Of a stretch of 15,520 bases of DNA, positions 1 to 15,520 are shown piece after piece. The position numbers were made by a program, and so were the translations under genes. Where the stretch lies: IMG/VR virus record IMGVR_UViG_2541047936_000006, positions 1-15,520 of that record; one strand, given 5' to 3'. Each line of letters opens with the position of its first letter. The stretch's first letter is position 1. The stretch is from a virus (taxonomy: Duplodnaviria > Heunggongvirae > Uroviricota > Caudoviricetes). The notes beneath the pieces are model-generated. The model was not told the DNA's origin and made no database searches. It saw nothing but the letters and a program-made list of their open reading frames with translations.

Positions 1-219
1 TTACATCCACATAATTTGCTGCCCTGACGGCAACGGGTGCGGCCTTACGGCGTGGACTTCTCCCGGCTTCACGATGTATCTCTGTACCGACTCATAAGTG
101 ATGAACGTGGCGCTGCAATTCACGTTCTGGCACTGGTGATAACGCTCTTTTGTCGTGTCAGTGATATAGCGACTTGTACGCGCATGTGCGGCATGCTGGC
201 ATAAAGGACAATGAAACAT
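1..219 (-). CDS. ogr: Ogr-type zinc-finger activator of P2 late genes, 72 aa
   Basis: Translation from the ATG at 219 reads MFHCPLCQHAAHARTSRYITDTTKERYHQCQNVNC..., with the four-Cys spacing C-x2-C-x22-C-x4-C typical of Ogr/Delta. GAGG lies about 10 nt upstream. The track ORF (1..282) extends upstream in frame, but the internal ATG gives the canonical 72-aa length. Stop is at 1-3. Confidence 0.9.
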   Translation of the reverse strand: MFHCPLCQHAAHARTSRYITDTTKERYHQCQNVNCSATFITYESVQRYIVKPGEVHAVRPHPLPSGQQIMWM

Positions 220-300
220 CGCGAGCACCTCTTCCGGTTTTGTTGATGGTGCCATTTTAGTTAATTTACCCTTATAAAACAAACAGATAAAATAAAAATA

Positions 301-603
301 TTACTCATCATCTTCTGTTTCGTACTCCACATCAGAAAGCCTGACCTCAAGCTCTAAGGACGTCGTGAAGCCGCTATTATTCAGAAAATGTGTCACCTTA
401 GTGATTGTCCAGTCCTGCTCGTCTATGACGCGCTTAAAGCCTGATACTTTGGCTAAGGGATGACACAATTTATTCTTTGCCGCTGATGAGGGGAATTTTT
501 TATAGAGCGTGGACAGGCCAATATCAAAAATCAGCGCCACGCGTTGACGTGATTCACCCGCAGCCAGCAATCCCCGGCAGAACGAACGCCGTATCGAGTT
601 CAC
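301..603 (-). pseudogene. Chimeric remnant: Gin/Pin/Hin-type DNA-invertase C-terminal HTH fused in frame to the C-terminal end of a gpD-like tail/baseplate protein
   Basis: Residues RQRVALIFDIGLSTLYKKFPS closely match the C-terminal HTH of serine invertases (Gin ...QVALIYDVALSTLYKKHPA). The C-terminal ...WTITKVTHFLNNSGFTTSLELEVRLSDVEYETEDDE resembles the end of P2 late control protein D and sits directly upstream of ogr as D does in P2. Only a GTG start, no RBS; far shorter than the 387-aa gpD. Confidence 0.5.
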
Positions 604-823
604 CGCCCACGGCCAGAATCAGCACCTGTTCCCCCACGGAAGGTGCCCACCACGTGCGCGAACGTCCGGCACGATGGGTCAGCCACTGAAGCCAGTCGGT
701 GCACATGCCGCCGGTCTGCACACGGCAGCGACCGGCGTTAAGGTCGGTTTCGACGATAATGCCGGTGCGGATCATGTTGCGCAGTGCGCGCGCGAGTTCC
801 TGAATATTTGCGAGTGTGTTCAT
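554..823 (-). pseudogene. N-terminal fragment (about 85 aa) of baseplate spike protein gpV
   Basis: ATG at 823; MNTLANIQELARALRNMIRTGIIVETDLNAGRCRVQTGG... matches the N-terminus of P2 gpV as I recall it. The frame ends after ...VLPGI with AGCG-stop, and the following ORF (301..603) overlaps it in another frame, which fits a deletion junction near 570. Confidence 0.6.
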
Positions 824-889
824 AACGGGAAGGATGCCGCCGGGTCATACCGGCGGCAATGTGACGATGAGGTGTCGGGAATGGCACAA

Positions 890-1318
890 CTAACGGTCGA
901 GGTGAGCCAGGATAATCTCTTCAATCATCTGCACATCCTCACCGGTAAAGCCGAGCAGAGGACGCGCCGGATAATCAATTTTCTTACCGTCTTTCCGGTT
1001 TTCTTCCGACAGACCGAACTGATGCACACTGGCGATTTTCGGCGACTTCCCGCCGTAAAATTCCATTGATGCCTGCTCCGGGCTGGCGCGGATATGCAAA
1101 AAACGACTGGTAATAAGTTTCGCAAACATTTTTCGCTTAACACGACCAGTCTTTTTTCTGGCGCTCTGCTGCTGGCGTGGCGCGTAGGGTGTGCCGTCCG
1201 GGGCTTTCTGAGCCATCACCCGACGCTGCTGACTCTGCCGCAGACGTTTCGCCAGTTCGGCGCTCAGTCGCCGACGCCCTGACGGTGACAGCGATTCAAT
1301 CAGTCCGGTCACCCTCAC
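890..1318 (-). CDS. Phage virion morphogenesis / tail completion protein, gpS family (possibly start-compromised)
   Basis: The C-terminal half carries the family signature ...ASVHQFGL...YPARPLLGFTGEDVQMIEEIILAHL. Only GTG starts (1318 or 1312), no clear SD. It lies 39 nt after, and in frame with, the stop of M, where P2 would have L. Confidence 0.6.
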   Translation of the reverse strand: MRVTGLIESLSPSGRRRLSAELAKRLRQSQQRRVMAQKAPDGTPYAPRQQQSARKKTGRVKRKMFAKLITSRFLHIRASPEQASMEFYGGKSPKIASVHQFGLSEENRKDGKKIDYPARPLLGFTGEDVQMIEEIILAHLDR

Positions 1319-1357
1319 TGACCGGCGTGCCGCCCTGGCGCGGGGCGCATTCGGTTG

Positions 1358-2101
1358 TTAACTGGCTTTCTTTTTCGGGCGTCCACGTTTTGCCGGTGTC
1401 ACGCTCCGGGTCTTACGCGGGGTACGGGTGGCCGCTTTGGGCTGCGGCTCCGGCTTCGGTTTCAGCTCCCGCTCCAGTCGTTCAATCTCTTTTTTGACGC
1501 CTGCCTGACAGTCGAGCTGTGTCGCACGTTGCAGGTGAGCCAGCGCACCGGCGGCATCACCACCATCACGCAGAAACAGACCGGTGATTTTGTGCAGCTT
1601 TGCGCGCACTTCATCAGGCATGTCAGCCGTGGCGGTCAGTTCAAGGGTCTCCGTCAGCAGGCGGGTATCCACAGACTCACCGGCAGCGTGGGCGCGCATG
1701 GCCGCGAGCGCCACCTCCTCGGTGAACATGTACGGCGGGGTGCGGCGGTGTTTACCCGGCATGGTCAGACCGTACTTCAGGGCATAACGGGCAATCTCCA
1801 GCGCACCGGCAATATCGCCGGTATCCAGACGCCACAGCATGACCGTCATCAGAATGTCATCCTGTGCACCTTTGCCCTGCTCCAGCACGCCGTTCACCCA
1901 CGGCAACCAGAACGGCAGCAGTTCGCGTTTTTTCGCGGCCTTCAGCTCTTTTGAATAAATCGCTTTCAGTGTGCGCTGGTCTGCGGCCAGCTTGACCAGC
2001 ATCTGCTCATAGACAGTTGCATGTCGCAGCGGGGCGGCTTCCCGCTGCGCGGTCATCGCTGCCGAGACCCGCATCATGTGGCGCTGTGCGGGACTCGTCA
2101 T
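1358..2101 (-). CDS. M: Terminase small (endonuclease) subunit gpM, 247 aa
   Basis: ATG at 2101, 3 nt after the N stop. Full-length match in size and sequence to P2 gpM (MTSPAQRHMMRVSAAMTAQREAAPLRHATVYEQ...), with the basic Lys/Arg/Pro-rich C-terminal tail. Confidence 0.9.
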   Translation of the reverse strand: MTSPAQRHMMRVSAAMTAQREAAPLRHATVYEQMLVKLAADQRTLKAIYSKELKAAKKRELLPFWLPWVNGVLEQGKGAQDDILMTVMLWRLDTGDIAGALEIARYALKYGLTMPGKHRRTPPYMFTEEVALAAMRAHAAGESVDTRLLTETLELTATADMPDEVRAKLHKITGLFLRDGGDAAGALAHLQRATQLDCQAGVKKEIERLERELKPKPEPQPKAATRTPRKTRSVTPAKRGRPKKKAS

Positions 2102-2104
2102 CGG

Positions 2105-3178
2105 TTACGCTCCCGGCTCTGCGGTCGCTTTAGCCGGTGTGGAGAAATCACCGACCTTAATTTTTTCCACCAGACAACCGGCGGCGTAGTCCTCCACCAC
2201 GTAATCAATGTTCATTGACTCGTAGTTCTCCACGCGGTCGAGTTTCGGGTTTTCCTCAATCACGCGGCGATGGCTGTCATCCATGTAGTAGATGGACAGG
2301 TTTTCCAGCTTCGTGATGAGCATCGCATCCGCCGGGAAGTACGGGACGCGTACCGCTGGCAGGTTGCCGATGCGTTTCTGGCTGATGATGACGTCAGCGG
2401 CCAGCATTTCGCTGTTGTCCTGCTCCTTGTTGACGATGGGAAAATACTTGTCCGCCAGTAGCTGACGTCCCACAATCACCACAAGGTCAGGGTCTTCCTG
2501 ATACCACGGCTCAATCAGGTTGTTGGTCGCATCCATCACCAGTGCATCAAGGCTGGCATAATCACCGCCCTTACCCACGCGGATGACCTCAGAGGTGGTG
2601 TGCCCTTCCTCGTCAGTGACCTTGCTCATCACGCGCGCCGGGGCTTCATTGCGGTATTTCTGCAGCCAGCCGACCGCCACATCCTGCAGCATCGGATTGC
2701 TGCTGCGGTCAGAGGTTTCGGCACGCCTCACGCCGTTAAAACCGGCCATGATTAAATCAAGGGACTGGCGTTTGATAATGGCGTTACGGACACGGAGCTG
2801 GAAATCCTGATAACGCGCCCACAGGTCCAGCGTTTTGTAGCGGATATAAAAATCGAAGTTAATCTGGTCGCATTCGTACTTGTTTGACGCCAGCTTCGAG
2901 AAGTCCTTCGGCTGACGCTCGGTGCCACCGGCGGTGTCGGTGGTGCTGGCGATGGAGCCGGTGACACCAATACCAATTTTTTCCCCTTTCATTTCGCTGA
3001 CCGGCACAATGTTGATGCGGGTCAGAAAGTCAGAGGACTCCTGCATGGTGTTCATCAGGGTCTGGGTGACCGACGGTTCAACGGTGAATTTTTTCGACAC
3101 ATCACCGGCGTCGATGCCGTTCAGTTCGGCAACACGGGACAGGTAGGCATTAAATTTAAAGCGGGTTTCCTGGCGCAT
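2105..3178 (-). CDS. N: Major capsid protein gpN, 357 aa
   Basis: ATG at 3178; MRQETRFKFNAYLSRVAELNG...; the length and sequence correspond to P2 gpN. Follows O and precedes M as in P2. Confidence 0.95.
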   Translation of the reverse strand: MRQETRFKFNAYLSRVAELNGIDAGDVSKKFTVEPSVTQTLMNTMQESSDFLTRINIVPVSEMKGEKIGIGVTGSIASTTDTAGGTERQPKDFSKLASNKYECDQINFDFYIRYKTLDLWARYQDFQLRVRNAIIKRQSLDLIMAGFNGVRRAETSDRSSNPMLQDVAVGWLQKYRNEAPARVMSKVTDEEGHTTSEVIRVGKGGDYASLDALVMDATNNLIEPWYQEDPDLVVIVGRQLLADKYFPIVNKEQDNSEMLAADVIISQKRIGNLPAVRVPYFPADAMLITKLENLSIYYMDDSHRRVIEENPKLDRVENYESMNIDYVVEDYAAGCLVEKIKVGDFSTPAKATAEPGA

Positions 3179-3236
3179 AGTTTTTCCTGAAATTAAGGGT
3201 TAATCGTGAAGGTTTTCCCGGACTGACTGACGCCGG

Positions 3237-4091
3237 TCAGCAGTTCGTCATCAGGGCGTCACCGCCACCGCCGGTGGCTTTGCTGCGGCGCTGCTGGGTC
3301 AGACTTTCGGTGTGGTCGAGACTGTTTTTCAGGCGGGTGAATGCCTGACTGGTTTCATCCGCCCTGTCAGTCACATCCTGCTTAAGTGCCGAAAAGGCGG
3401 TTTCCATCTCAGCAAGGCGCTGCTCAGTGGCGCTCAGTTTTTCCTGCACATGCTCAGCGACAGCGGTCACCGCTTCATGCACGTCATTCAGACGGGCGTC
3501 ATCGCTGGCCTGTTTGCGGCCAAAAATGGATTTCACCTTTTCGGTCAGGGCGGTGAACACGGTTTCAGGCAGGTCTTCAAATTCCAGCTCAACAGGCGTT
3601 GCCACTGAAATCAGGTTTTCAGGGCTTAATTTGAAGCGGTTCAGAGGGTTGTGTTTTGCCGTGCGGCAGAATTCCAGGTATTCCGTGCCGAGGCTTGCCG
3701 GGTCATCGGTGACGGCCAGACCCACCAGATAACATTTGCCTGTATTGGCAAAGTTCGGCTGAATTTCCATTGAGGTATAGACCTTCTGCGCGGCCTTGTT
3801 CATCGCGATAAGGTCATCGGTCGGGGTGATTTTCGCAAACAGCGCCCATTTGCCTTTCAGCGCCGAATCATCGTCAATCTTTTCGGCCTTCAGTTCGGCC
3901 ACATCGCCATAACGTTTAAAAATACCGTCAGGCAGGATGCCGCGCAGATGTTCCAGGTTAATGCGGCAACCATAGACACGCGGGTCAAAGGTTTCGGCCA
4001 TTTCCTGAATATCCTGCGCACTGATGACACGCCCGTCACAGGTGTCACCCTCAACGCCGATACGAAAGAATTTTGAGACTTTTTTTGCCAT
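3237..4091 (-). CDS. O: Capsid scaffolding protein gpO, 284 aa
   Basis: The track ORF starts at 4157, but the internal ATG at 4091 (MAKKVSKFFRIGVEGDTCDGRV...) gives exactly 284 aa, the P2 gpO length. AGGA lies about 12 nt upstream. Confidence 0.85.
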   Translation of the reverse strand: MAKKVSKFFRIGVEGDTCDGRVISAQDIQEMAETFDPRVYGCRINLEHLRGILPDGIFKRYGDVAELKAEKIDDDSALKGKWALFAKITPTDDLIAMNKAAQKVYTSMEIQPNFANTGKCYLVGLAVTDDPASLGTEYLEFCRTAKHNPLNRFKLSPENLISVATPVELEFEDLPETVFTALTEKVKSIFGRKQASDDARLNDVHEAVTAVAEHVQEKLSATEQRLAEMETAFSALKQDVTDRADETSQAFTRLKNSLDHTESLTQQRRSKATGGGGDALMTNC

Positions 4092-4264
4092 TGTCAGGAG
4101 TCCTGAATAGTGATTAGAGGAGTCACATGTCGGCATCAGTTTCCCGACGATGCGCATCCTCCGCCATCAGTCCCGGATGGCTTATCACTGACACAACAGC
4201 ACCTTAGCGAATCGCGGGGCGCGACTCAGTAGCCTTGCCGTGTATTCATCACGGCGAGGTATTC
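4092..4264. promoter_or_regulatory. Divergent late-promoter region between O (leftward) and P (rightward), expected to be Ogr-dependent
   Basis: This is the 173-bp intergenic region between the two divergent head operons, which is where P2 has its P_O and P_P promoters. I could not locate an exact TGT-N12-ACA element by eye, so the call is positional. Confidence 0.45.
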
Positions 4265-6037
4265 ATGACCATCACCACAGACACCACTCTTTTACACGAC
4301 CCGCGTCGTCAGGCGGCGCTGCTGTACTGGCAGGGATTTTCCGTGCCGCAGATTGCCGCCATGTTGCAGATGAAACGCCCGACGGTGCAGAGCTGGAAAC
4401 AGCGCGACGGCTGGGACAGCGTTGCCCCCATCAGCCGTGTCGAAATGAGTCTGGAAGCGCGGCTGACCCAGCTCATCATCAAACCGCAGAAAACCGGCGG
4501 TGACTTCAAGGAAATTGACCTGCTCGGACGCCAGATTGAACGACTGGCGCGGGTCAACCGCTACAGTCAGACCGGCAACGAGGCAGACCTTAATCCGAAC
4601 GTCGCTAACCGCAACAAAGGCGGGCGTCGCAAACCGAAAAAGAATTTTTTCAGTGACGAGGCCATCGAAAAGCTGGAGCAGATTTTCTTTGAGCAGTCTT
4701 TCGAATATCAGTTGCACTGGTATCGCGCCGGACTTGAGCACCGCATCCGCGATATCCTGAAATCCCGCCAGATTGGCGCGACGTTTTATTTTTCCCGCGA
4801 GGCGCTGCTGCGCGCCCTGAAAACCGGCCATAACCAGATTTTTCTGTCGGCCAGTAAAACGCAGGCGTATGTGTTCCGCGAATACATCATTGCCTTTGCC
4901 CGGCTGGTTGACGTTGACCTGACCGGTGACCCGATTGTCCTGGGCAATAACGGTGCAAAACTGATTTTTCTCGGCACCAACTCCAACACCGCACAGAGCC
5001 ATAACGGCGACCTGTACGTCGATGAGATTTTCTGGATCCCGAATTTTCAGGTACTGCGTAAGGTGGCATCAGGTATGGCCTCACAGAGTCACCTGCGCTC
5101 GACCTATTTCTCCACCCCGTCCACGCTGGCGCACGACGCCTACCCGTTCTGGTCCGGTGAACTGTTTAACCGGGGACGCGCCAGCGCCGCTGAACGCGTG
5201 GAAATCGACGTCAATCATAACGCACTTGCCGGAGGTCTTCTCTGTGCGGACGGCCAGTGGCGGCAGATTGTCACCATTGAGGACGCGCTGAAAGGCGGCT
5301 GCACGCTGTTCGACATTGAGCAGCTCAAACGCGAAAACAGCGCCGACGATTTTAAAAACCTGTTCATGTGTGAATTTGTTGACGACAAGGCGTCAGTGTT
5401 CCCGTTCGAGGAGCTGCAACGCTGCATGGTCGACACGCTGGAAGAATGGGAAGACTACACGCCGTTTGCCACCAATCCGTTCGGCTCCCGCCCGGTATGG
5501 ATTGGTTACGACCCGTCACACCGTGGCGACAGCGCCGGATGCGTGGTGCTGGCACCGCCGGTGGTGGCCGGTGGCAAATTCAGAATACTTGAGCGCCATC
5601 AGTGGAAAGGCATGGACTTTGCCACCCAGGCGGAATCCATCCGCAAACTCACCGAAAAATACAACGTCGAATACATCGGTATTGATGCCACCGGCCTCGG
5701 TGTCGGCGTGTTCCAGCTCGTGCGCTCGTTCTATCCCGCCGCGCGCGATATCCGCTACACGCCGGAAATGAAAACCGCAATGGTGCTCAAGGCAAAAGAC
5801 GTTATTCGCCGTGGCTGTCTGGAATATGACGTCAGCGCCACCGACATCACCAGCTCGTTTATGGCTATCCGCAAGACCATGACCAGCAGCGGACGCAGCG
5901 CCACCTATGAGGCCAGCCGCAGCGAGGAAGCCAGCCACGCCGACCTCGCCTGGGCGACCATGCACGCTCTGTTAAATGAGCCACTCACCGCCGGTATCAG
6001 CACCCCGCTGACATCCACCATTCTGGAGTTTTACTGA
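4265..6037 (+). CDS. P: Terminase large (ATPase) subunit gpP, 590 aa
   Basis: ATG at 4265, preceded by GAGG at 4257-4260. MTITTDTTLLHDPRRQAALLYWQGFSVPQIAAMLQ... ends ...TILEFY. The length matches P2 gpP, and the stop TGA overlaps the Q start (TGATG). Confidence 0.9.
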   Translation: MTITTDTTLLHDPRRQAALLYWQGFSVPQIAAMLQMKRPTVQSWKQRDGWDSVAPISRVEMSLEARLTQLIIKPQKTGGDFKEIDLLGRQIERLARVNRYSQTGNEADLNPNVANRNKGGRRKPKKNFFSDEAIEKLEQIFFEQSFEYQLHWYRAGLEHRIRDILKSRQIGATFYFSREALLRALKTGHNQIFLSASKTQAYVFREYIIAFARLVDVDLTGDPIVLGNNGAKLIFLGTNSNTAQSHNGDLYVDEIFWIPNFQVLRKVASGMASQSHLRSTYFSTPSTLAHDAYPFWSGELFNRGRASAAERVEIDVNHNALAGGLLCADGQWRQIVTIEDALKGGCTLFDIEQLKRENSADDFKNLFMCEFVDDKASVFPFEELQRCMVDTLEEWEDYTPFATNPFGSRPVWIGYDPSHRGDSAGCVVLAPPVVAGGKFRILERHQWKGMDFATQAESIRKLTEKYNVEYIGIDATGLGVGVFQLVRSFYPAARDIRYTPEMKTAMVLKAKDVIRRGCLEYDVSATDITSSFMAIRKTMTSSGRSATYEASRSEEASHADLAWATMHALLNEPLTAGISTPLTSTILEFY

Positions 6038-7071
6038 TGAGCAAGAAAAAAGGGAAAACACCGCAACCTGCGGCAAAAACAATGACCGCCAGCGCCCCGA
6101 AAATGGAGGCATTCACCTTTGGTGATCCGGTGCCGGTACTCGACCGCCGTGACATTCTGGATTATGTCGAGTGCATCAGTAACGGCAGATGGTATGAGCC
6201 ACCAGTCAGCTTTACCGGTCTGGCAAAAAGCCTGCGTGCTGCCGTGCATCACAGCTCACCGATTTACGTCAAACGCAATATTCTGGCCTCGACATTTATC
6301 CCGCATCCGTGGCTTTCCCAGCAGGATTTCAGCCGCTTTGTGCTGGATTTTCTGGTGTTCGGTAATGCGTTTCTGGAAAAGCGATACAGCACCACCGGTA
6401 AGGTCATCAGACTGGAAACCTCACCGGCAAAATATACCCGCCGTGGTGTGGAAGAGGATGTTTACTGGTGGGTGCCGTCCTTCAACGAGCCGACAGCCTT
6501 CGCACCCGGCTCCGTGTTTCACCTGCTGGAGCCGGATATTAATCAGGAGCTGTACGGCCTGCCGGAATATCTCAGCGCCCTTAACTCTGCCTGGCTGAAT
6601 GAGTCGGCCACGCTGTTCCGCCGCAAGTATTACGAAAACGGCGCTCATGCCGGATACATCATGTACGTCACCGATGCCGTGCAGGATCGCAACGATATCG
6701 AAATGCTTCGCGAAAACATGGTTAAGTCGAAAGGCCGCAATAACTTTAAAAATCTGTTTCTCTATGCCCCACAGGGGAAAGCCGACGGCATTAAAATTAT
6801 CCCGCTCAGTGAAGTGGCAACGAAGGACGATTTTTTTAATATCAAAAAAGCCAGCGCCGCTGACCTGCTGGACGCGCATCGCATCCCCTTTCAGTTGATG
6901 GGGGGCAAGCCGGAGAACGTCGGGTCGCTGGGTGATATTGAGAAAGTGGCAAAGGTCTTTGTCCGCAATGAGCTTATCCCGTTACAGGACAGGATCCGCG
7001 AGATAAACGGCTGGCTCGGTCAGGAGGTCATCCGATTTAAAAACTACTCACTGGACACTGACAACGGCTGA
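6037..7071 (+). CDS. Q: Portal (capsid vertex) protein gpQ, 344 aa
   Basis: MSKKKGKTPQPAAKTMTAS...; same length as P2 gpQ and translationally coupled to P. Followed by a terminator and cos, as at the left end of the P2 genome. Confidence 0.9.
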   Translation: MSKKKGKTPQPAAKTMTASAPKMEAFTFGDPVPVLDRRDILDYVECISNGRWYEPPVSFTGLAKSLRAAVHHSSPIYVKRNILASTFIPHPWLSQQDFSRFVLDFLVFGNAFLEKRYSTTGKVIRLETSPAKYTRRGVEEDVYWWVPSFNEPTAFAPGSVFHLLEPDINQELYGLPEYLSALNSAWLNESATLFRRKYYENGAHAGYIMYVTDAVQDRNDIEMLRENMVKSKGRNNFKNLFLYAPQGKADGIKIIPLSEVATKDDFFNIKKASAADLLDAHRIPFQLMGGKPENVGSLGDIEKVAKVFVRNELIPLQDRIREINGWLGQEVIRFKNYSLDTDNG

Positions 7072-7076
7072 ACATC

Positions 7077-7098
7077 GCCGCCTGCGGGCGGCTTTTTT
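7077..7098 (+). terminator. Rho-independent terminator of the P-Q operon
   Basis: GCCGCC (7077-7082), loop TGCG, GGCGGC (7087-7092), then TTTTTT (7093-7098), starting 6 nt after the Q stop. Confidence 0.7.
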
Positions 7099-7240
7099 AC
7101 ACCCCGTCATCACCCCCTCACACGCTCACCACCGCACAAAACACCCCGCAGACACACCAACGCCTCAACGGGCAGACTAAGCGCCGTCACGACGCGCTCA
7201 GACGCTGAAAAAATAAAATCCGCACCACCGCCAGCGCGCA

Positions 7241-7259
7241 GTGCTTTCCCCGCCTCGCC
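7241..7259 (-). other. P2/P4/186-type cos cohesive-end sequence (19 nt)
   Basis: The plus strand reads GTGCTTTCCCCGCCTCGCC, the reverse complement of GGCGAGGCGGGGAAAGCAC, which I recall as the P2/P4 cohesive end. It lies about 170 bp beyond the Q stop, matching P2 left-end topology. Confidence 0.75.
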
Positions 7260-7518
7260 CGCCCGCTTCATGGGGAGGTTTTAATGCAAACGCATCAGGA
7301 AGGGCAGACCTAGTCACATGTAGAATACGATAGCAATAAAAAAGTCTAATTAGAATGCAAATTGATGCAACTCTATGCCCTCCAAGAACTCCAAACCTGA
7401 AAGATTTATGTAAAACATAGTGTTCGTTTCACCAAAATACATATAAACTACATTAAAATAGAAATTTGTCTCACCTATAAGCCATTTAGACAACAGATTA
7501 ATGAGGTTTGTATCACAA

Positions 7519-8664
7519 ATGACCACAAACGAGATACTTTCGCAGCTTATCAGTCTTGGACTCAAAGGGGATAAAGTTGCTTTTGTTCGGCAGGCTTCGA
7601 AACTCGCGCGTTCCTATGATTCTATGGGGCTGCCTGAGCTTGCTTCAGCCATTAGAGGTAGTATTCAAGATAAAAACACGTTTAACTTGCAGAAAGTATC
7701 ACGCAGTACATCACCTATTTTTGAACGTCTTGATACATTACCTGTAGATAAAGAAACTAAATTTGATTTAGCAGACGTAACTCAACCGTCTTCTGAAATT
7801 CAACTCCCATTGTTGAAAGATAGCACTCTGAAAAAAATTAAAGAATTTTTGACTTTCACTGAACGAGCTAAAGAATTAAAGGATGCCGGTCTTGGCGTGA
7901 CATCCTCTATGATTTTATATGGGCCACCAGGTTGTGGTAAAACCTTGACATCAAAATATATTGCATCCTGTCTAAATTTACCGCTTCTTACTGCAAGATG
8001 TGACTCCTTAGTCTCATCATATCTGGGGTCTACTTCTAAAAATATCAGGCAGCTATTTGAGTATGCAAGTAAAGCACCATGTGTTTTATTTCTAGATGAA
8101 CTAGATTCTCTAGCAAAGGCTAGAGATGATCAGCATGAGTTAGGTGAACTGAAGAGGGTGGTGGTTTCTTTATTGCAAAATATTGACAATCTACCTGAAG
8201 AAACAATATTGATTGCTGCAAGTAATCATGAAAATCTTCTAGATAGCGCAGTTTGGAGGCGCTTTGAGTATAGAATATCTATTGGATTGCCTGATTTTGA
8301 AGTCAGAAAACAACTATTTGAACAATATTCAAACATAAAAGCTACATATGACGATTTTGTTGATGACCTTGCGGAAATATCATCAGGGCTAAACTGCTCA
8401 TTTATAGAACAATGCTGCTTAAGATCTGAGCGACATGCTCTGGTTTACAATAATAAACAAATCGATACCCGATTTTTAGTCGAGGCTATCTTAGAAGCGA
8501 AGGGAGTTACATTTGATGAAGAAGATAATTTACTTATAAAGATTGTGACCACTCTCAGAGAATACAATCCCAAAAGATTTACAATACGAAAGATAGCAAA
8601 AATACTAGGGCTTTCAAATGCTAAAGTGTCAAGGCTAACTAAGAACTATAGAGAGATATTATGA
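7519..8664 (+). CDS. Classical AAA-family ATPase, 381 aa (candidate IetA-like defence ATPase)
   Basis: Walker A is GPPGCGKT (Lys141, nt 7921-7944) and Walker B is VLFLDELD (nt 8083-8106). The second region of homology, ...AASNHENLLDSAVWRRFEYRISIGLPD, resembles the Vps4/katanin-type RRFE/D motif. Start chosen at the ATG at 7519 (GAGG 12 nt upstream); the track start is 7501. The stop overlaps the next start (ATGA). Confidence 0.85.
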   Translation: MTTNEILSQLISLGLKGDKVAFVRQASKLARSYDSMGLPELASAIRGSIQDKNTFNLQKVSRSTSPIFERLDTLPVDKETKFDLADVTQPSSEIQLPLLKDSTLKKIKEFLTFTERAKELKDAGLGVTSSMILYGPPGCGKTLTSKYIASCLNLPLLTARCDSLVSSYLGSTSKNIRQLFEYASKAPCVLFLDELDSLAKARDDQHELGELKRVVVSLLQNIDNLPEETILIAASNHENLLDSAVWRRFEYRISIGLPDFEVRKQLFEQYSNIKATYDDFVDDLAEISSGLNCSFIEQCCLRSERHALVYNNKQIDTRFLVEAILEAKGVTFDEEDNLLIKIVTTLREYNPKRFTIRKIAKILGLSNAKVSRLTKNYREIL

Positions 8665-10925
8665 GTAACAAAGAAAGACCAATAAAAATAATTGAGGCGA
8701 CACCTCAAGATTTTACTGAAAAAACATATAATTTCGGAAAGAAACAACCTATCCGAACAGTAACAACTAGTCTAAAAAATAGACTCAAACAAGAAGTCGA
8801 TGACGTTAAAAATTTTTTCCAGAGCTCATTTAAAAAATGGCCCAATATACCGGCGGTGGCTAGAGTTACTCTTCATGAAAAAGCTCTTGCTAAGTCACAT
8901 CGCCCATCAAGCCTATTAGGTGATAATACATGTCCCGTAATAGGCAGTGATAATTTTGGAGAATTACTTATAAGTGTTACTGAAAAAGGGTTAGCACAAC
9001 TTCGCAAAAAAATTGAAAATAGCACTAATTCTCATAATGGGACAGTACATATTGCTGTAATTGAAAAGATCGAACCTTTTAGTCTTAACCATGATGTTAT
9101 AGATAAAAATAAATCAGATAGTTTTCTTCTGAAACTCTTTGACCATAAAGATAGAACAACTAACCGCAGTATCGACAAAGAATTAATGGAATTTGCAGAT
9201 GAACTAGGAATACAAAAACCCAAAAAGTATGATATCAGTTCAGATTTGAGTATATATGAAGTAAAAGGGAATGATAACATCGCCCAACTGGCAAGTTTTA
9301 TTGGCATACGAAAATTAGAACCTATGCCAACATTTGGTCTTACTCATACAGTATCGCAATATATTCCTGCTGAAACTCTAGACCTAGATGATTTTCCCTT
9401 ACCTCAAGAGGATAAACATTATCCACTACTCGGAATTATAGATAGCGGAGTCGATCCCAATAACAACATACTTAGGCCATGGATTTGGGATAGTTTAGAT
9501 TTAGTAAAAGGAGAACACGACTATTCTCATGGGAACATGGTTGCAAGTTTAGCAATTAATGGAAGATGGTTGAATAACTATGCTGGTTTTCCTCAATGCC
9601 AAGCTGAAATTGTTGATGTTGCAGCCTTTCCCAAAGATGGTACGCTCAAATTGCCACAATTAATGAAAGCTATCCGAGAGGCTGTGACCACCTATCCAGA
9701 AGTACGTGTATGGAATCTGTCATTAGGTTGTCAATCCCCATGTTCTGAAGACAGCTTCTCTGAATTGGGGCATTTTTTAAATGCACTTCATGATGAGCAT
9801 GATTGTCTTTTCGTCGTAGCATCCGGCAACTACATTTATGATCCTCAACGAACCTGGCCTCCTCAAGAATTAGGTGGGCATGACAGAATATCAGCCCCCG
9901 CAGATTCTGTTCGTTCATTAACTGTTGGCTCAGTTGCCCATTTAGAATCGTCTGACTCTGTGGTCAAAAGATTTGAACCTTCATCTTTTTCTAGAAGAGG
10001 TCCCGGCCCAGCCTTTATACCCAAACCAGAGATAAATCACTTTGGAGGTAATTGTGACAGTAAATTAAACTGTGAACATACCGGAATCATAGCTATTGGC
10101 GAGGACAATGCTCTTTGCGAAAGTATTGGCACAAGTTTATCAGCACCGTTAATCTCAAGTTTAGCGGCATCACTGTGGCATGAACTAGATGTTAATGGTT
10201 CTATTTCACCATCGCCTGAACGTATCAAGGCACTATTAATTCATTCTGCGTTAAAAAACTCACCAGCCAAAACGGAGCATTATGCGTTTAATTATCAAGG
10301 ATTTGGACGCCCAAGCGATCATATAAATGATATTATTGGTTGCAATAAAAATGAGATTACATTTCTATTTGAAATAGATACCCGAGAAGGTATTGAATTC
10401 AGTAGAACGCCATTTGTAATACCACAGTCATTACGTACTGAGGATGGAAAATTCACAGGTGAAATTATTATGACACTCGTTTATTCTCCACCGCTTGATT
10501 ATGACTACCCATCTGAATATTGCCGTTCTAATGTGGATGTGTCATTCGGGACTTACACTTATGATCCAGTTAACGCTAAATGGATACATAGCGGAAAAAT
10601 TCCACAAATAAAAGAAAAGAGTGAATTATTTGAAAAGGTACTGATAGAAAATGGCTTCAAATGGTCTCCAGTCAAAGTTTATAGAAAACAATTTCCGCAA
10701 GGTATAAATGGGGAGCAATGGAGACTTAAACTTGATGTTCAGAGACGAGCAGAGCAAGAGCCTCTATCTTCACCTCAACGTGCTGTATTGGCTATTACGT
10801 TAAGATCTCTTGCCAATTCTACTACAGTCTACAACGAAGCCGAGGTTGAAATAAATAATCTTGGTTGGAAAGAAACTGATATTGTTGTTCGTGAACAACC
10901 AAAAATCAGGATTCGTCAAAAATAA
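8661..10925 (+). CDS. Subtilisin-like serine peptidase (S8 family), 754 aa, with large extra N- and C-terminal regions (candidate IetS-like)
   Basis: The catalytic triad appears in the canonical order D-H-S: Asp261 in GIIDSGVD (nt 9441-9443), His290 in HGNMVAS (9528-9530), Ser492 in GTSLSAP (10134-10136), with an ASGN oxyanion-hole motif. About 250 aa N-terminal and about 220 aa C-terminal have no recognisable motifs. AT-rich codon usage. Confidence 0.9.
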   Translation: MSNKERPIKIIEATPQDFTEKTYNFGKKQPIRTVTTSLKNRLKQEVDDVKNFFQSSFKKWPNIPAVARVTLHEKALAKSHRPSSLLGDNTCPVIGSDNFGELLISVTEKGLAQLRKKIENSTNSHNGTVHIAVIEKIEPFSLNHDVIDKNKSDSFLLKLFDHKDRTTNRSIDKELMEFADELGIQKPKKYDISSDLSIYEVKGNDNIAQLASFIGIRKLEPMPTFGLTHTVSQYIPAETLDLDDFPLPQEDKHYPLLGIIDSGVDPNNNILRPWIWDSLDLVKGEHDYSHGNMVASLAINGRWLNNYAGFPQCQAEIVDVAAFPKDGTLKLPQLMKAIREAVTTYPEVRVWNLSLGCQSPCSEDSFSELGHFLNALHDEHDCLFVVASGNYIYDPQRTWPPQELGGHDRISAPADSVRSLTVGSVAHLESSDSVVKRFEPSSFSRRGPGPAFIPKPEINHFGGNCDSKLNCEHTGIIAIGEDNALCESIGTSLSAPLISSLAASLWHELDVNGSISPSPERIKALLIHSALKNSPAKTEHYAFNYQGFGRPSDHINDIIGCNKNEITFLFEIDTREGIEFSRTPFVIPQSLRTEDGKFTGEIIMTLVYSPPLDYDYPSEYCRSNVDVSFGTYTYDPVNAKWIHSGKIPQIKEKSELFEKVLIENGFKWSPVKVYRKQFPQGINGEQWRLKLDVQRRAEQEPLSSPQRAVLAITLRSLANSTTVYNEAEVEINNLGWKETDIVVREQPKIRIRQK

Positions 10926-10930
10926 GCATT

Positions 10931-10955
10931 ATGGTCACCTTTTATAGGTGACCAT
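10931..10955. terminator. Hairpin between the convergent cargo operons (possible bidirectional terminator)
   Basis: ATGGTCACC (10931-10939), loop TTTTATA, GGTGACCAT (10947-10955); a perfect 9-bp stem between the stop at 10925 and the stop at 10959. There is no strong U-tract on either side. Confidence 0.45.
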
Positions 10956-10958
10956 TTA

Positions 10959-11720
10959 CTACACCTTATTATTTTCAACTATTTTATGAATATCCATATC
11001 AAACCAAGAAACTTGCGAAATTTCTTTTAGTGGAAAGATGATACTAGTATCAGCATCCTCAAGCTCTCTATATTCATTCACCAAGATTACTTTCAATGAA
11101 TCCTTATCTCTATACCCAGAGATAATAGGATAGATTGAAACATACTGGTTAGGTCCTTCTTTCTCGTTAGGCTCACCTAATGCGTTAACAATTCCTACAT
11201 ATGTCTTTTTATTTTGCAACGTAATAAGTATTGAACGTCTATCAACTAACGAATCAAAAAATATTTCATCCATTGGATTATCATTAATAAGCTCTTGCCT
11301 CATCCTTAGCATGACAAGATTCTCATAATCAATATTGGCAGCCTTTACCCCTTGGATATAATTTATAATTTTAGCTCTATATATAACCAAATATCTAGCA
11401 CCGACACTCCATATCCAAGCCAAAAATATCGTTCCACATGAAAGTAAAATCATCCATCCTATGATTCTTTCAGTACCATTGTCACTAAGTTTGAGATCTA
11501 ATTGTTCCCGAACCATCGTGACAGGATGGAAGCTCGGACATATCCATTTTATTAAGTAAGCTATAATCAATGTCCATATAAAACACCACAGACCAAAGGC
11601 GGCTGACTTCATATATAACAACTGCCCATCATAACGGTGTAATCTATAGAAATGATAAGGATGAGTGGTTAATACAATATAACCACTCACAAGTAATGGA
11701 ATAATTAATAAAGCAAACAT
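10959..11720 (-). CDS. Uncharacterised membrane protein, 253 aa: three predicted N-terminal TM helices plus a soluble C-terminal domain of about 145 aa
   Basis: ATG at 11720. Hydrophobic stretches are FALLIIPLLVSGYIVLTT, AAFGLWCFIWTLIIAYLIKWI and IIGWMILLSCGTIFLAWIWSV. Its start lies 2 nt after the stop of the upstream small ORF (TAATAATG). No family recognised. Confidence 0.7.
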   Translation of the reverse strand: MFALLIIPLLVSGYIVLTTHPYHFYRLHRYDGQLLYMKSAAFGLWCFIWTLIIAYLIKWICPSFHPVTMVREQLDLKLSDNGTERIIGWMILLSCGTIFLAWIWSVGARYLVIYRAKIINYIQGVKAANIDYENLVMLRMRQELINDNPMDEIFFDSLVDRRSILITLQNKKTYVGIVNALGEPNEKEGPNQYVSIYPIISGYRDKDSLKVILVNEYRELEDADTSIIFPLKEISQVSWFDMDIHKIVENNKV

Positions 11721-11722
11721 TA

Positions 11723-11959
11723 TTAATTCCCTTTAGCCATTTTTTCTTCTTGCTTTACCTGCTCAGAAACTATTTTTCTTGCTTTAATTTTCATCAATTT
11801 TACTGTATCTGAGCTTGCCAAGTCTTCTTTAGATGTGATAATCGCGCCTCGACCTACCACCTCAACAGTGTTTGTTCCAGATGCTTCAAGCCTCCTCGCC
11901 AGTTCTCTTTCCTTTTCAATAGCAGCTTTACCTATAATACGTTCAAATATATTCATCAT
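11723..11959 (-). CDS. Small charged hypothetical protein, 78 aa, first gene of a two-gene operon
   Basis: ATGATG start at 11959/11956 with a strong SD (GGAGG about 6 nt upstream on the minus strand). The stop is tightly coupled to the membrane-protein start. Sequence MMNIFERIIGKAAIEKERELARRLEASGTNTVEVVGRG...; no family recognised. Confidence 0.6.
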   Translation of the reverse strand: MMNIFERIIGKAAIEKERELARRLEASGTNTVEVVGRGAIITSKEDLASSDTVKLMKIKARKIVSEQVKQEEKMAKGN

Positions 11960-12050
11960 TTAACCTCCACTTGATTGATGCCAAGATAGTAATCACCTCC
12001 TCACAATATCTTACCAACCTAACAATTAACAGAACACTGTGTATAAGTCC

Positions 12051-12078
12051 AGTATAGTTTAATTAATAAATTAGGCAA
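12051..12078 (-). promoter_or_regulatory. Candidate sigma70 promoter for the minus-strand two-gene operon
   Basis: On the minus strand: TTGCCT (-35), a 16-nt spacer, TATACT (-10), about 90 nt upstream of the ATG at 11959 in an AT-rich intergenic region. Found by eye only. Confidence 0.3.
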
Positions 12079-12473
12079 ATCTATCAAAATGGTATTTTGT
12101 TAAAAATTCAGCTAACTCTGAGGTTGGTAAAACAGTCCACCAGATGTATCGCTAAAGCACTTAGAAACCACTATAACCATCCTAAGTGTACCAGTCAGTC
12201 TGTTTGTCTAATCGCATCACTATGCTCGTTATTCTATCCCCCGCCAATCCTGAGCTGGCTGCGTTCTCTATCGTCTGCGTGGTGGCGGTGCAGCGCTGGG
12301 CTGACCGATATAGTTAAGCCATACGTAATTATCCCGGACTATTTCGGCACACCCGACCAGCTCATCGGGCGTCAGATTTTCGTTGACCATAATCTGCTGT
12401 AGACGGTGAACAATGGCCATCAGCTTGATATTTTTAGTTTTATGCTGCGGTATCTCGCCTGGTATTCTGTGCA

Positions 12474-12929
12474 TTATCCAAGCCACCCGTTTTGCTGTGC
12501 ACGCTCCACCTGTTCATCTGAATAGTTCCATATCCCATCCGCACCAACCACTGCCCCGCCAGACATCCCCGTCTCTGGTTCATACACAACAGCAAGGCCG
12601 AGCTGATGCATAATTTCATGATTAATTCTGAATACCAGACCACGCTCACTAAGTTCTTTCCAGTTCACAAACTCATATGCGCCTGTATTAAGCAGCTCAA
12701 TACTTAGCAAGACATAATCTTCCAGCCAGTCTGACAAGTCAGTAACATCTGTTATCCGGGCTTCAACCTTTCGCCCCGTATACACACCCTGCACCCATTC
12801 ATGCAAAATCAACGTGTCCCCGCGCTCATAATTACGGTCATTTTTCCGAAACTCTGCGCGTTTCTTTCCTTCCAGCACAAGGTCAAAATATTTTGCGTGC
12901 AGCTTTACCTCGTGAATTTTTGCCATCAT
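12474..12929 (-). CDS. DUF3850-like (ASCH/PUA-like fold) domain protein, about 151 aa
   Basis: MAKIHEVKLHAKYFDLVLEGKKRAEFRKNDRNYERGDTLILHEW...YTGRKVEARITDV matches the DUF3850 consensus as I recall it. ATG at 12929 with GGAG about 9 nt upstream; it overlaps the stop of the A fragment (ATGATG/TGA). The track ORF starts at a GTG at 12962. Confidence 0.65.
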   Translation of the reverse strand: MMAKIHEVKLHAKYFDLVLEGKKRAEFRKNDRNYERGDTLILHEWVQGVYTGRKVEARITDVTDLSDWLEDYVLLSIELLNTGAYEFVNWKELSERGLVFRINHEIMHQLGLAVVYEPETGMSGGAVVGADGIWNYSDEQVERAQQNGWLG

Positions 12930-14038
12930 TTCCACTCCATTACTGTTGAGAATCCCGGCCACTCATCAGCGACCGGATACGTGAATTTTTTCCCGTCATA
13001 ATTTACGGTCGCGCCACGCGCCAGCGCCTCAAGCTCCCATCGCTGCGGCCTGATACCGTTCTGAGCAAGGTCAACGCGGATACGGGTAATTTGCATTCTT
13101 TCCGACCGGGTCAGTCTGGCCGATGGTGCAATTTCATGTGGTTTTAACGGGCTTCCGTTTCTTTGCTGACGGTTTGGCGTTCTCAGGTCGTGTTTTAATG
13201 CACCCCTGAGCGCCCTCACGACCTCCGGGTCATTCCATTCGATAACACCATCATCAACCAGATTAAGCACTGCTGCGGCGTGTTCAGAAGGCGTGGGAGC
13301 CGGTGACGAAGTATCACCACTGGTGAGCTTTCCACAGTTATTGACAGGACTCCGAGGCGCGGCGATGCCGCTTTTTAAAGTCAAAGGCTCAACGACCGGC
13401 ACTTTCGGAACAATGCGCCAGTCCGTGGTTCTGGTGATATGAATATGACGCGCGCCGAGATGCGGCGCGTAAATGCCGACCACTCTCTCGACTTCTTCCT
13501 CGTACTCGTTAACTTCATCCGACGGACTACGGGCGACCCTGACAGTCTGACAATCGCGCGAGACATTTGCCCCACCCTGCGCGCTGATATACAGCGCAAA
13601 ATCACCACTGTCTGCGGCGGCGCGTGCAGCCTCGACGCGCTCGTCAAACTCATCAGCAATGCTGACGCCGCGAGGCAATTTGCGTAGTTCACGGTAAGCC
13701 CCCATTGTCGGCAGACCAACCGTTTTAAATTGCGGGATGCGCCACGTTGACGCCCATGCGGTAACAGCCGCCGCAGTATCTTTCAGCGGTCTGCCGGTAT
13801 CGTTATCGAGCTGACCATCCAGTGCATAGCCGTCGATATTTTTTGAAATGTATTTCGCGATATATCCCGCAGCACCGCCCCGGTTACCGATGTAAAGAGC
13901 AAAACCTTCTTTCGACAGCAAATCAGATGGGCGCTCTGAAATCTGAATGCTTTTACGTTTGGCTTCATTTTCGAAACTTGCCTCATCGCTAGTTGGACAA
14001 GAAATTTCTACATTTGTCGTCACTTTGCTATCCTCCAT
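12926..14038 (-). CDS. Replication initiation endonuclease gpA family, C-terminal portion only (about 370 aa against 761 aa in P2)
   Basis: Contains the rolling-circle initiator active-site Tyr motif GYIAKYISKNIDG about 60 residues from the start, where P2 gpA has its catalytic Tyr near residue 450. No cox or B gene lies upstream. Possible starts are the ATG at 14038 or the GTG at 14023 (GGAGGA 8 nt upstream). Confidence 0.65.
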   Translation of the reverse strand: MEDSKVTTNVEISCPTSDEASFENEAKRKSIQISERPSDLLSKEGFALYIGNRGGAAGYIAKYISKNIDGYALDGQLDNDTGRPLKDTAAAVTAWASTWRIPQFKTVGLPTMGAYRELRKLPRGVSIADEFDERVEAARAAADSGDFALYISAQGGANVSRDCQTVRVARSPSDEVNEYEEEVERVVGIYAPHLGARHIHITRTTDWRIVPKVPVVEPLTLKSGIAAPRSPVNNCGKLTSGDTSSPAPTPSEHAAAVLNLVDDGVIEWNDPEVVRALRGALKHDLRTPNRQQRNGSPLKPHEIAPSARLTRSERMQITRIRVDLAQNGIRPQRWELEALARGATVNYDGKKFTYPVADEWPGFSTVMEWK

Positions 14039-14060
14039 AAGATTTGCGATTCACCAACTG

Positions 14061-14085
14061 GAGCCATCTAGAGCCTTTTTGAGCG
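14061..14085. promoter_or_regulatory. Three 10-bp-phased direct repeats (GAGCC/GAGCC/GAGCG) in the switch region; candidate C-repressor operator
   Basis: GAGCCatcta GAGCCttttt GAGCGaatca at 14061, 14071 and 14081, between the divergent A fragment and C. P2-family repressors are known to bind direct rather than inverted repeats. A TATAAT hexamer lies at 14109-14114. Confidence 0.4.
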
Positions 14086-14131
14086 AATCACAAATTGCCA
14101 AGTAACAATATAATTGGAGATTAGCAAAATT

Positions 14132-14431
14132 ATGTCAAGTGAACAAAGTGAGAAACTAAAGCTCATCCGTGAATCCGAACGCCTTAAAACTAAGGAACTT
14201 GCTGAATTAATTGGAATTAATTACTACACATATCATGGATATGAATCAGGAAAATCAAAAATGCCTATGGAAGCAGGTATGAAGCTGTTTAAGCATCCAC
14301 GCTTTCGCAAGTATCGTGACTGGTTCATGTTTGATGAAACAGATCCAGCAGCTGGACAAATAGCCCCGGCTCTCGCACACATTGGGCAAGACTCAACAAC
14401 CTTGCACCACTCAGACCAGAAGACTGGCTGA
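14132..14431 (+). CDS. C: Immunity repressor C (P2 C family), 99 aa
   Basis: ATG at 14132 with GGAG 12 nt upstream; the track starts at a TTG at 14114. The C-terminus ...AGQIAPALAHIGQDSTTLHHSDQKTG parallels P2 C (...SGQIAPALAHFGQNETTSPHSGQKTG), with an HTH-like segment near the N-terminus. Confidence 0.8.
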   Translation: MSSEQSEKLKLIRESERLKTKELAELIGINYYTYHGYESGKSKMPMEAGMKLFKHPRFRKYRDWFMFDETDPAAGQIAPALAHIGQDSTTLHHSDQKTG

Positions 14432-14524
14432 CGATTTATTCAGCATATGTGTGTAGTAAATGTACGAAAGAAAATTGCATTAATTTTCAAGTAGTAGAAG
14501 TAAACAGCGTCATCGGAGGGCTTT

Positions 14525-15520
14525 ATGTCTATTAAAAAGCTCGATGATGGTCGTTATGAAGTGGACGTCAGACCGCAGGGTGCAGATGGAAAACGTATCA
14601 GGCGGAAATTTAAAACTAAAGGTGAAGCTCAAGCATTCGAACGTCATGTACTGGTTAACTACCACAACAAAGAGTGGTTGGAGAAACCAGCCGACCGCCG
14701 AACTCTTACAGAGTTGTTAGGCAGATGGTGGATATATCACGGAAAATCACATGAGCGTGGAGATATTGAACGGGGGCGTTTAACGACAATAATCGCCAAA
14801 TTTGCAGAAATGGGAGTGTCCAGAGCTGACCAGCTAACAAAGAAAACGATAACTGATTATCGCGTTGTAATGATGAACGATGGTCTGAAACCAGCCAGCG
14901 TAAATCGACATCTGGCAATAATGAGCGGGATGTTCACCAAGTTAATTGACGCCGGTGAATACCACTCTCACAACCCGTTCCGTGAGATTAAACGGTTACG
15001 TGAAGCTGTTACGGAAATGGCTTTTTTGTCCAGTGAAGAGATTACGCGGCTGTTATCCATGCTTGATGGTGATGAATTAAATGCAACTCTGGTCTGCCTT
15101 TCTACTGGTGGACGCTGGAGTGAAGTATCTAATTTAAAAGCTGAACACATCATTAACCAGATGGTTACGTTTATGAAAACTAAAAACGGAAAACGCAGGA
15201 CAATTCCCGTTTCGCAGGACCTGATTAAACGGATCAAGACCAAAAATTCAGGCAGGCTTTTTAATGCCAGTTACTACAAAGTGCGTAACGCTCTCAGGGA
15301 AGTAAAACCCGATTTACCTGACGGACAAGCAGTACATGTTTTGAGGCATACATTTGCCACACATTTTATAATGAATGGAGGTAACATAATCACATTGCAG
15401 CGCATCCTGGGTCATTCTAACATTCAGCAAACTATGACCTACGCACACTTTGCACCGGATTTCTTACAAGATGCTGTGACTCTTAACCCGGTGTCAGGAA
15501 TGTCCATAATGCGTCCATAA
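14525..15520 (+). CDS. int: Tyrosine integrase (P2 Int family), 331 aa
   Basis: GGAGGG SD precedes the ATG at 14525. The catalytic box HVLRHTFATH and the Tyr in ...QQTMTYAHF (nt 15440-15442) are present. It is downstream of C as in P2, and its stop coincides with the window end. Confidence 0.9.
   Translation: MSIKKLDDGRYEVDVRPQGADGKRIRRKFKTKGEAQAFERHVLVNYHNKEWLEKPADRRTLTELLGRWWIYHGKSHERGDIERGRLTTIIAKFAEMGVSRADQLTKKTITDYRVVMMNDGLKPASVNRHLAIMSGMFTKLIDAGEYHSHNPFREIKRLREAVTEMAFLSSEEITRLLSMLDGDELNATLVCLSTGGRWSEVSNLKAEHIINQMVTFMKTKNGKRRTIPVSQDLIKRIKTKNSGRLFNASYYKVRNALREVKPDLPDGQAVHVLRHTFATHFIMNGGNIITLQRILGHSNIQQTMTYAHFAPDFLQDAVTLNPVSGMSIMRP

Follow-up and report, generated by a model that had tools for sequence, protein, structure and literature searches.

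Phages of the P2 family carry a hotspot of anti-phage systems beside the cos site, between gpA and gpQ, which in P2 itself is occupied by old/tin, and 1,650 gene arrangements were counted in 18,150 of these hotspot loci (Rousset et al. 2022, Cell Host Microbe, PMC9122126). Here we describe the occupant of this slot in a P2-like (Peduoviridae) prophage from IMG/VR record IMGVR_UViG_2541047936_000006. The window, i.e. the whole stretch of 15,520 nucleotides that was analysed (positions 1 to 15,520 of that record), contains the prophage in an orientation opposite to that of the P2 record. Its slot is filled by an AT-rich island which comprises the gene pair ietA-ietS and, convergent to it, a two-gene cassette encoding a membrane protein and a small basic protein. 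We consider it highly probable that this island, at 7289-12254, is exchangeable cargo of the P2-family cos-proximal hotspot, with ietA-ietS and the cassette as its two modules.

The first module belongs to the IetAS systems, which Gao et al. reportedly described in 2020 as an anti-phage system. In the pair from pTiC58 the toxin is IetS, with IetA as its antitoxin; a homologue from SGI1 is a functional toxin-antitoxin system which stabilises SGI1 (PMC5006074). IetAS from E. coli (ECOR52) was cloned and assayed against phages, where it was weak alone and showed synergy with Zorya II; IetAS can also be prophage-located (both bioRxiv 10.1101/2022.08.21.504612). A described mechanism of IetAS was not found in our literature search. 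The second module has an entry in the hotspot catalogue, which is described below. The features of the island are the following.

7289-12254, no strand: variable cargo island of 4,966 bp with 36.5% GC, delimited by homology breakpoints, GC changepoints and genome counts
7501-8664, plus strand: ietA, AAA+ ATPase of 387 amino acids (aa); PADLOC IetA PDLC02196, E 9e-132 (residues 9-382), and Pfam AAA, 1e-31
8661-10925, plus strand: ietS, subtilisin-like S8 serine protease of 754 aa; PADLOC IetS PDLC02197, E 1e-273 (1-747 of 749), and Pfam Peptidase_S8, 7e-24
10931-10955, no strand: perfect 10-bp hairpin ATGGTCACCT-ATAAA-AGGTGACCAT between the convergent operons
10959-11720, minus strand: gene for an uncharacterised membrane protein of 253 aa
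11723-11959, minus strand: gene for a basic soluble protein of 78 aa (pI 9.6); phrog_37504, function unknown
11960-12254, minus strand: AT-rich leader of the cassette, with consensus matches only

The island differs sharply in composition from its surroundings. In windows of 400 nt the GC content is 52-63% over 600-7200, falls to 33-43% over 7400-12200 and is back at 51% at 12201-12600. The left core (1315-7288) has a GC content of 56.2% and the right core (12255-13886) of 52.3%, compared with 37.1% for the IetAS part and 34.9% for the cassette part of the island. The same is seen at third codon positions (GC3), with values of 0.25-0.30 in the four island genes versus 0.61-0.71 in the genes N, O, P and Q. 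A maximum-likelihood fit with two changepoints places the shifts at 7310 and 12237, and its log-likelihood gain of 225 compares with at most 29 across 100 shuffles of 50-nt blocks. Beyond the island the composition is not evenly P2-like either, as the ASCH/DUF3850 gene has 47% GC and the C/int end (13887-15520) 42%.

Homology to P2 and to five P2-like prophages with other cargo stops at 7288-7298 and restarts at 12254/12255. From these shared breakpoints the variable segment is defined as 7289-12254. With P2 (NC_001895) alone the homology also stops at 7288 and restarts only at 12706, because the 3' part of orf91 differs in P2 and P2 lacks the open reading frame (ORF) of 72 aa that follows the island in the window. 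An initial annotation of the window had described an abrupt switch from GC-rich to AT-rich DNA at 7300 and a return to P2-like composition at 12230. The switch is confirmed by the sliding GC profile, the changepoint fit and GC3, and both edges were right to about 25 nt. Taken together, the GC profile and GC3 reveal a strong shift, and the alignment to the P2 relatives shows the region to be accessory and not conserved core.

The island starts 30 nt past cos and ends before the orf91-like and A genes, that is, in the slot where P2 has old/tin. Its assignment to this position, already made in the initial annotation, is borne out by the alignment to P2, in which cos falls at 7241-7259. Among 5,426 complete E. 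coli genomes the flanks were counted in 2,144, whereas only 12 have the island; both halves of the island occur in the same 12 genomes. Five other E. coli P2-like prophages have different genes between the same breakpoints, and in one of the five (L008, NZ_AP045833, 1596-1875) the hotspot is near-empty with about 280 bp between these points. These counts and the near-empty site agree with the earlier view that the island was acquired, and the two candidate systems expected in it correspond to exactly two gene modules. L008 is also useful as an empty-site reference.

The same six-protein set (WP_000210436, WP_000066157, WP_000457800, WP_021570510, WP_000554775 and WP_032144906) is found in Table S5A of Rousset et al., in the rows NZ_QOWX01000046 and NZ_BGYB01000068. 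The cassette appears in Table S5B of that study as system 57, which is credited with 75 occurrences, lacks a Pfam domain and bears the remark '2 TM in protein 1'; a homologue is system 43. The cassette is not among the systems tested in Table S2 of the same study. As the exact protein set and the cassette are both listed, the island itself, its hotspot and its arrangement count as known, and only the cassette with its linkage to IetAS is still unexplored.

The genes ietA and ietS are co-directional, and the start of ietS overlaps the end of ietA by 4 nt. In RefSeq relatives the start of ietA is placed at 7519. IetA has an intact Walker A motif (GPPGCGKT, residues 141-148) and an intact Walker B motif (VLFLDE, 195-200). 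Its nearest solved structures are unfoldases of the Cdc48/VCP class, and no IetAS structure is found among the deposited structures. In IetS the catalytic residues D261, H290 and S492 as well as the oxyanion residue N389 are intact. The RefSeq product names are merely 'AAA family ATPase' and 'S8 family peptidase'. The pair is a classic-clade AAA+ ATPase with a subtilisin-like protease, and thus belongs to a recognised anti-phage system, a role which it presumably has in this host as well. Infection, or the loss of control by IetA, would release the IetS protease, and the infected cell would then be arrested or killed.

The gene for the 78-aa protein lies 2 nt upstream of that for the 253-aa protein and has a GGAGG ribosome-binding site. 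Both proteins lack a match in Pfam, PADLOC, NCBIfam and the PDB sequences, singly as well as in the form of family profiles, and PHROGs assigns both to families of unknown function. In the 253-aa protein three N-terminal hydrophobic helices, predicted to be transmembrane (TM), are followed by a C-terminal beta-barrel which is predicted to be cytoplasmic and Sm/Hfq-like. This predicted C-terminal domain consists of an N-terminal helix and a strongly bent five-stranded beta-sheet, as in the Sm/LSm/Hfq fold. The protein carries the motifs K172-x-Y-x-G176 and S201-G-Y-R, and the residues K172, Y174, G176, P198 and S201-G-Y-R204 are invariant. A conserved VVGRG hairpin motif is found in the 78-aa protein. 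A fold search of BFVD returned only unannotated small Sm-like phage proteins, and no membrane Sm-like defence protein was found in a literature search. As the 253-aa protein has exactly the length of P2 Tin, homology to Tin was considered and rejected (best BLASTP E 6.7).

The cassette may be a second module of lysogenic conversion, one which acts at the membrane by superinfection exclusion or abortive infection. Its Sm-like domain, if ring-forming, could sense a ligand or nucleic acid or serve oligomerisation, and the 78-aa protein would be a regulator or a partner of the 253-aa protein.

The cassette is not confined to this hotspot. Cronobacter phage phiES15 has a homologous pair between int and attP, and Salmonella SEN5 and Klebsiella ST15-OXA48phi14.1 each have one in this very hotspot; further pairs are located in islands next to int in Klebsiella and Serratia, and in one Pseudoalteromonas island. 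An E. coli homologue, which adjoins the integrase of a common prophage, is recorded in 1,851 collection blocks. A species-wide scan yielded 66 cassette loci in Gamma-, Beta- and Alphaproteobacteria and beyond. In 47 of the 56 analysable loci a small homologous ORF stands directly upstream of the large gene and ends within about 50 nt of it. The family comprises 241 protein clusters. The cassette is therefore an autonomous mobile module at accessory loci of temperate phages.

Two of these relatives may be mentioned separately. In Klebsiella phage ST15-OXA48phi14.1 (L011, 2283-4992) a distantly homologous cassette of 72 aa and 280 aa is located directly upstream of a 69-aa ORF and a TIR/bSEFIR gene, which makes it another cassette beside a recognised defence gene in a P2-type hotspot. 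In a very common E. coli prophage (L013-L016, 4749-5819) a 47%-identical cassette of 82 aa and 272 aa has the integrase on one side and the chromosomal junction on the other, and the neighbouring genes of this prophage include members of the YfdP and DUF2303 families. This prophage may resemble CPS-53/KpLE1, in which K-12 has its O-antigen-modifying gtr genes at the corresponding position.

The two modules of the island are tightly linked. In all 22 sampled loci with an IetS of at least 58% identity the same convergent four-gene layout is found (L018, L019, L021, L087-L089, L093-L106, L185 and L186). Eight of these loci, from metagenomes and viral contigs, were retrieved via IetS alone, and all eight have the cassette. 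Conversely, every intact locus with a homologue of the 253-aa protein of at least 54% identity has ietA-ietS convergent on the large and the small cassette genes. The four proteins diverge in parallel among the linked loci: the identities of IetS and of the cassette protein are 90% and 88% in Enterobacter and Citrobacter, 78% and 76% in Pectobacterium, 63% and 59% in Yersinia, and 58% and 54% in Rahnella. Whatever the host, the block is AT-rich, with 34-38% GC. Its contexts are P2-like hotspots, an island with integrase and AlpA in Salmonella/Citrobacter, an island near cpxA flanked by insertion sequences in Pectobacterium, and an element with integrase and RepB/ParB in Providencia.

About 110 loci with an IetS of at most 44% identity have no cassette, with the exception of L195. 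In this phage contig (IMGVR_UViG_2937525446_000001, 3892-8279) an IetS of 34% and an IetA of 38% identity are followed by a convergent cassette of 69 aa and 294 aa, which is 24% identical and has kept the motifs KxYxG and SGYR. L195 represents either an independent re-pairing or a rare retention. Apart from this one distant case, the linkage is a trait derived within a single Enterobacterales clade. Within that clade the four genes have very probably been inherited and transferred as one block. That the pairing is a selected functional partnership, synergistic or coupled, which would include a defence role for the cassette, is a tentative proposal that we rate below even chance.

Several observations weigh against parts of this reading. 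The nearest IetS outgroups, with 56% and 51% identity, have no cassette downstream, and the cassettes of at most 49% identity (about 50 loci) are without IetAS. As outgroup IetAS and distant cassettes occur singly, both modules work, or at least persist, alone. The block inheritance may also be due to hitch-hiking, i.e. to a single joining event that was never broken. Concerning IetAS, the equivalog cut-offs of NCBIfam are missed by both proteins (IteA 387 bits with a cut-off of 510, IteS 782 bits with a cut-off of 900), and the pair is therefore regarded as a divergent IetAS subfamily. Upstream of ietA no consensus-like sigma-70 site is found. The Sm-like assignment derives from a predicted structure with marginal Foldseek E-values (3e-3), and the sequence profiles searched (Pfam LSM/Hfq and PDB profiles) lend it no support. 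Finally, the first description of IetAS was that of a toxin-antitoxin system for plasmid stability, and a role in retention of the prophage is equally compatible with the data.

This last point leads to the question whether the cargo serves the prophage itself, with IetAS as an addiction module which holds the element in the chromosome and the cassette as unrelated cargo. IetAS was indeed defined by its effect on the stability and incompatibility of pTiC58, and its homologue stabilises SGI1 (PMC5006074). Moreover, the prophage of the window has lost many phage genes, yet the island is intact. On the other side, IetAS is listed in curated anti-phage libraries (PADLOC, and NCBIfam under the name 'anti-phage') and was assayed against phages, and the slot is enriched for defence systems. 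We regard the addiction module as a possible but somewhat improbable explanation, and addiction and defence are not mutually exclusive roles.

It was also considered that the whole set of four genes works as a single system, with the membrane Sm-like protein and its small partner as effector or sensor of the protease; cleavage by IetS, of either the small protein or the linker in the 253-aa protein, could for example open a membrane pore. The convergent layout, kept in 22 of 22 loci over a range of 58-100% IetS identity and in at least four kinds of mobile-element context, would fit such a system, as would the parallel divergence of the four proteins and the very distant second instance in L195 (IetS 34%, cassette protein 24%), all the more as the cargo of the hotspot is otherwise heavily reshuffled. 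However, the two pairs are convergent with a terminator-like hairpin between them and so do not form one operon, Rousset et al. curated them as separate systems, and all 22 linked loci may stem from one joining event. The cassette-free outgroups, the about 110 more distant IetAS loci and the about 50 cassette loci without IetAS speak against it as well. A single system thus appears unlikely, including the example of the pore. In its strict form, an obligate four-gene system, the idea is weakened by the cassette-free IetS outgroups of 51% and 56%.

With respect to the preferred reading, exchangeable hotspot cargo with two modules, the route of exchange has to be considered. Neither a transposase nor an integrase or recombinase is encoded inside 7289-12254 according to the ORF list, Pfam, PADLOC and PHROGs, and the segment is not bracketed by direct or inverted repeats. 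The abrupt edges and the foreign composition would also suit an insertion by a transposon, an integron cassette or another site-specific element, but given the lack of such enzymes and repeats, the identical two breakpoints in prophages with unrelated cargo, and the occurrence of the same four-gene block elsewhere in quite different flanks, this is largely refuted and very improbable. The island is not a transposon. Related phages would rather swap their cargo through homologous recombination within the conserved flanks, which is probably the simplest route.

Regarding expression of the two modules, the hairpin at 10931-10955 is, judged by its sequence, likely a bidirectional terminator. In the cassette leader the best promoter-like candidates on the minus strand are TTGCCT-16-TATACT (12078-12051) and CTGACT-17-TATAGT (12198-12170), both of which are consensus matches only. 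The best promoter-like site of the cassette is enclosed by an imperfect inverted repeat of 24 nt (12011-12034/12107-12130, 79% complementary), which could be an operator. Promoter-like sites in the region are at the level of shuffled sequence (20 versus 17.9 +/- 3.9 expected). With this number and the lack of a sigma-70-like site in front of ietA, the suggestion of the initial annotation that the island also delimits the promoters of its systems finds no support. There is no terminator-like site between the conserved 72-aa ORF and the cassette, and read-through from the early operon is therefore possible. Scans of the window for Rfam families and tRNAs returned nothing.

The flanks of the island are 96-98% identical to P2 and many of its relatives. 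The following features were assigned outside the island.

2105-3178, minus strand: capsid gene N
3237-4157, minus strand: scaffold gene O
4235-6037, plus strand: terminase gene P
6037-7071, plus strand: portal gene Q
7075-7092, plus strand: terminator-like hairpin 3' of Q in the conserved left flank, equivalent of P2 tQ; GCCGCCTGCGGGCGGC followed by a T run, with tQ annotated at the matching place in P2
7241-7259, no strand: cos cohesive end of 19 nt, GTGCTTTCCCCGCCTCGCC; by blastn against NC_001895 position 7259 is P2 position 1 and 7241 is P2 position 33593
12268-12486, minus strand: small ORF of 72 aa, first gene of the conserved right flank; phrog_11386, annotated in L001 and L004-L008
12474-12962, minus strand: orf91-like DUF3850/ASCH gene of the conserved right flank; Pfam DUF3850, 8e-18, and ASCH, 7e-11
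12926-13886, minus strand: 3' part of replication gene A; match to the terminal portion of the Pfam Phage_GPA profile only; blastn against L001 and S164
14114-14431, plus strand: repressor gene C
14525-15520, plus strand: integrase gene

Two small conserved genes (12268-12486 and 12474-12962) thus stand between the island and gene A. The first of them is annotated in RefSeq in a version of 68 aa (12268-12474) and is missing from P2 itself; the homology restarts 13 nt downstream of its stop codon. Antisense to it, an ORF of 101 aa on the plus strand (12097-12402) matches phrog_33524 (E 2e-24). This ORF could be a genuine antisense gene, or else an annotation error that has spread through phage records.

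Gene A is truncated by a deletion with its junction at 13884-13886, and the prophage as a whole is heavily degraded, with further junctions at 449-450, 569-578 and 1309-1314. Compared with the intact P2-like phage S164, the window consists of the blocks 21652-21203, 14977-14847, 9690-8945 and 5951-1, then the cargo, and thereafter 28437-26806, 23508-23462 and 23239-21869. This patchwork implies four internal deletions, by which most of the tail and lysis genes were lost, together with the stretch that runs from the 5' half of A to part of cox. Neighbouring aligned blocks share 2-10 nt at the junctions. Intact in this degraded prophage are the defence island, cos, P, Q, N, O, C and int. The junction between the remainder of A and cox was found in none of the 5,426 complete E. 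coli genomes. The degraded structure may be that of a natural cryptic prophage or of a spliced window.

As a textbook case of the P2 cos-proximal defence hotspot the island adds nothing new. Its clean limits, however, make 7289-12254 a ready-to-clone unit, and this unit raises the questions how the IetAS variant senses infection, which targets its protease has, and what the function of the membrane Sm-like cassette is. Although temperate phages often have this cassette at their accessory loci, no match to it came up in the four family libraries searched, PADLOC among them. The stable linkage of the four genes across different types of elements provides a testable hypothesis of cooperation between two defence modules. 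If the partnership were indeed selected, the cassette would represent a novel anti-phage or exclusion system acting at the membrane, with an Sm-like ring as sensor or oligomerisation domain, and such a system would be widespread at temperate-phage accessory loci in Proteobacteria.

In comparison with known systems, the present cargo is unrelated to either Old or Tin: the P2 old/tin region gives no blastn match in the window, and no Old model is among the PADLOC matches. The validated system of the P2-like phage AC1 (Rousset et al. 2022), which consists of a 2TM, a 1TM and a TIR protein, shares with the cassette the hotspot and the small membrane proteins. A kinship between them was rejected, as the 2TM and 1TM proteins reach at most 5.7 bits against either cassette protein.

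The prophage exclusion modules of the RexAB type combine a soluble partner with a multi-pass membrane protein. By analogy the cassette is likewise a small prophage-borne accessory pair of one soluble and one polytopic membrane protein. It differs in the predicted Sm/Hfq-like cytoplasmic domain of its membrane protein, and no relation in sequence or fold was found. From the small beta-barrels of Sm/LSm/Hfq and WYL the predicted domain differs by the absence of a profile match, by its fusion to three TM helices and by the K-x-Y-x-G and S-G-Y-R motifs, which are specific to the cassette family.

The closest correspondence is seen for the hotspot and for IetAS. The island agrees with the gpQ/cos-gpA hotspot in position, conserved flanks, cargo of foreign composition and the presence of more than one system per locus, and its size of 4.97 kb versus a reported average of 3.2 kb is no difference in kind. 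With the known IetAS systems it shares the overlapping co-directional gene pair, the full-length matches to hidden Markov models, the intact Walker A and B motifs and the intact Asp/His/Ser triad. It is set apart from them by its scores under the NCBIfam cut-offs and by its convergent partner, since the clade with an IetS of at least 58% identity is always accompanied by the two-gene cassette, whereas the other IetAS loci, L195 excepted, are without it.

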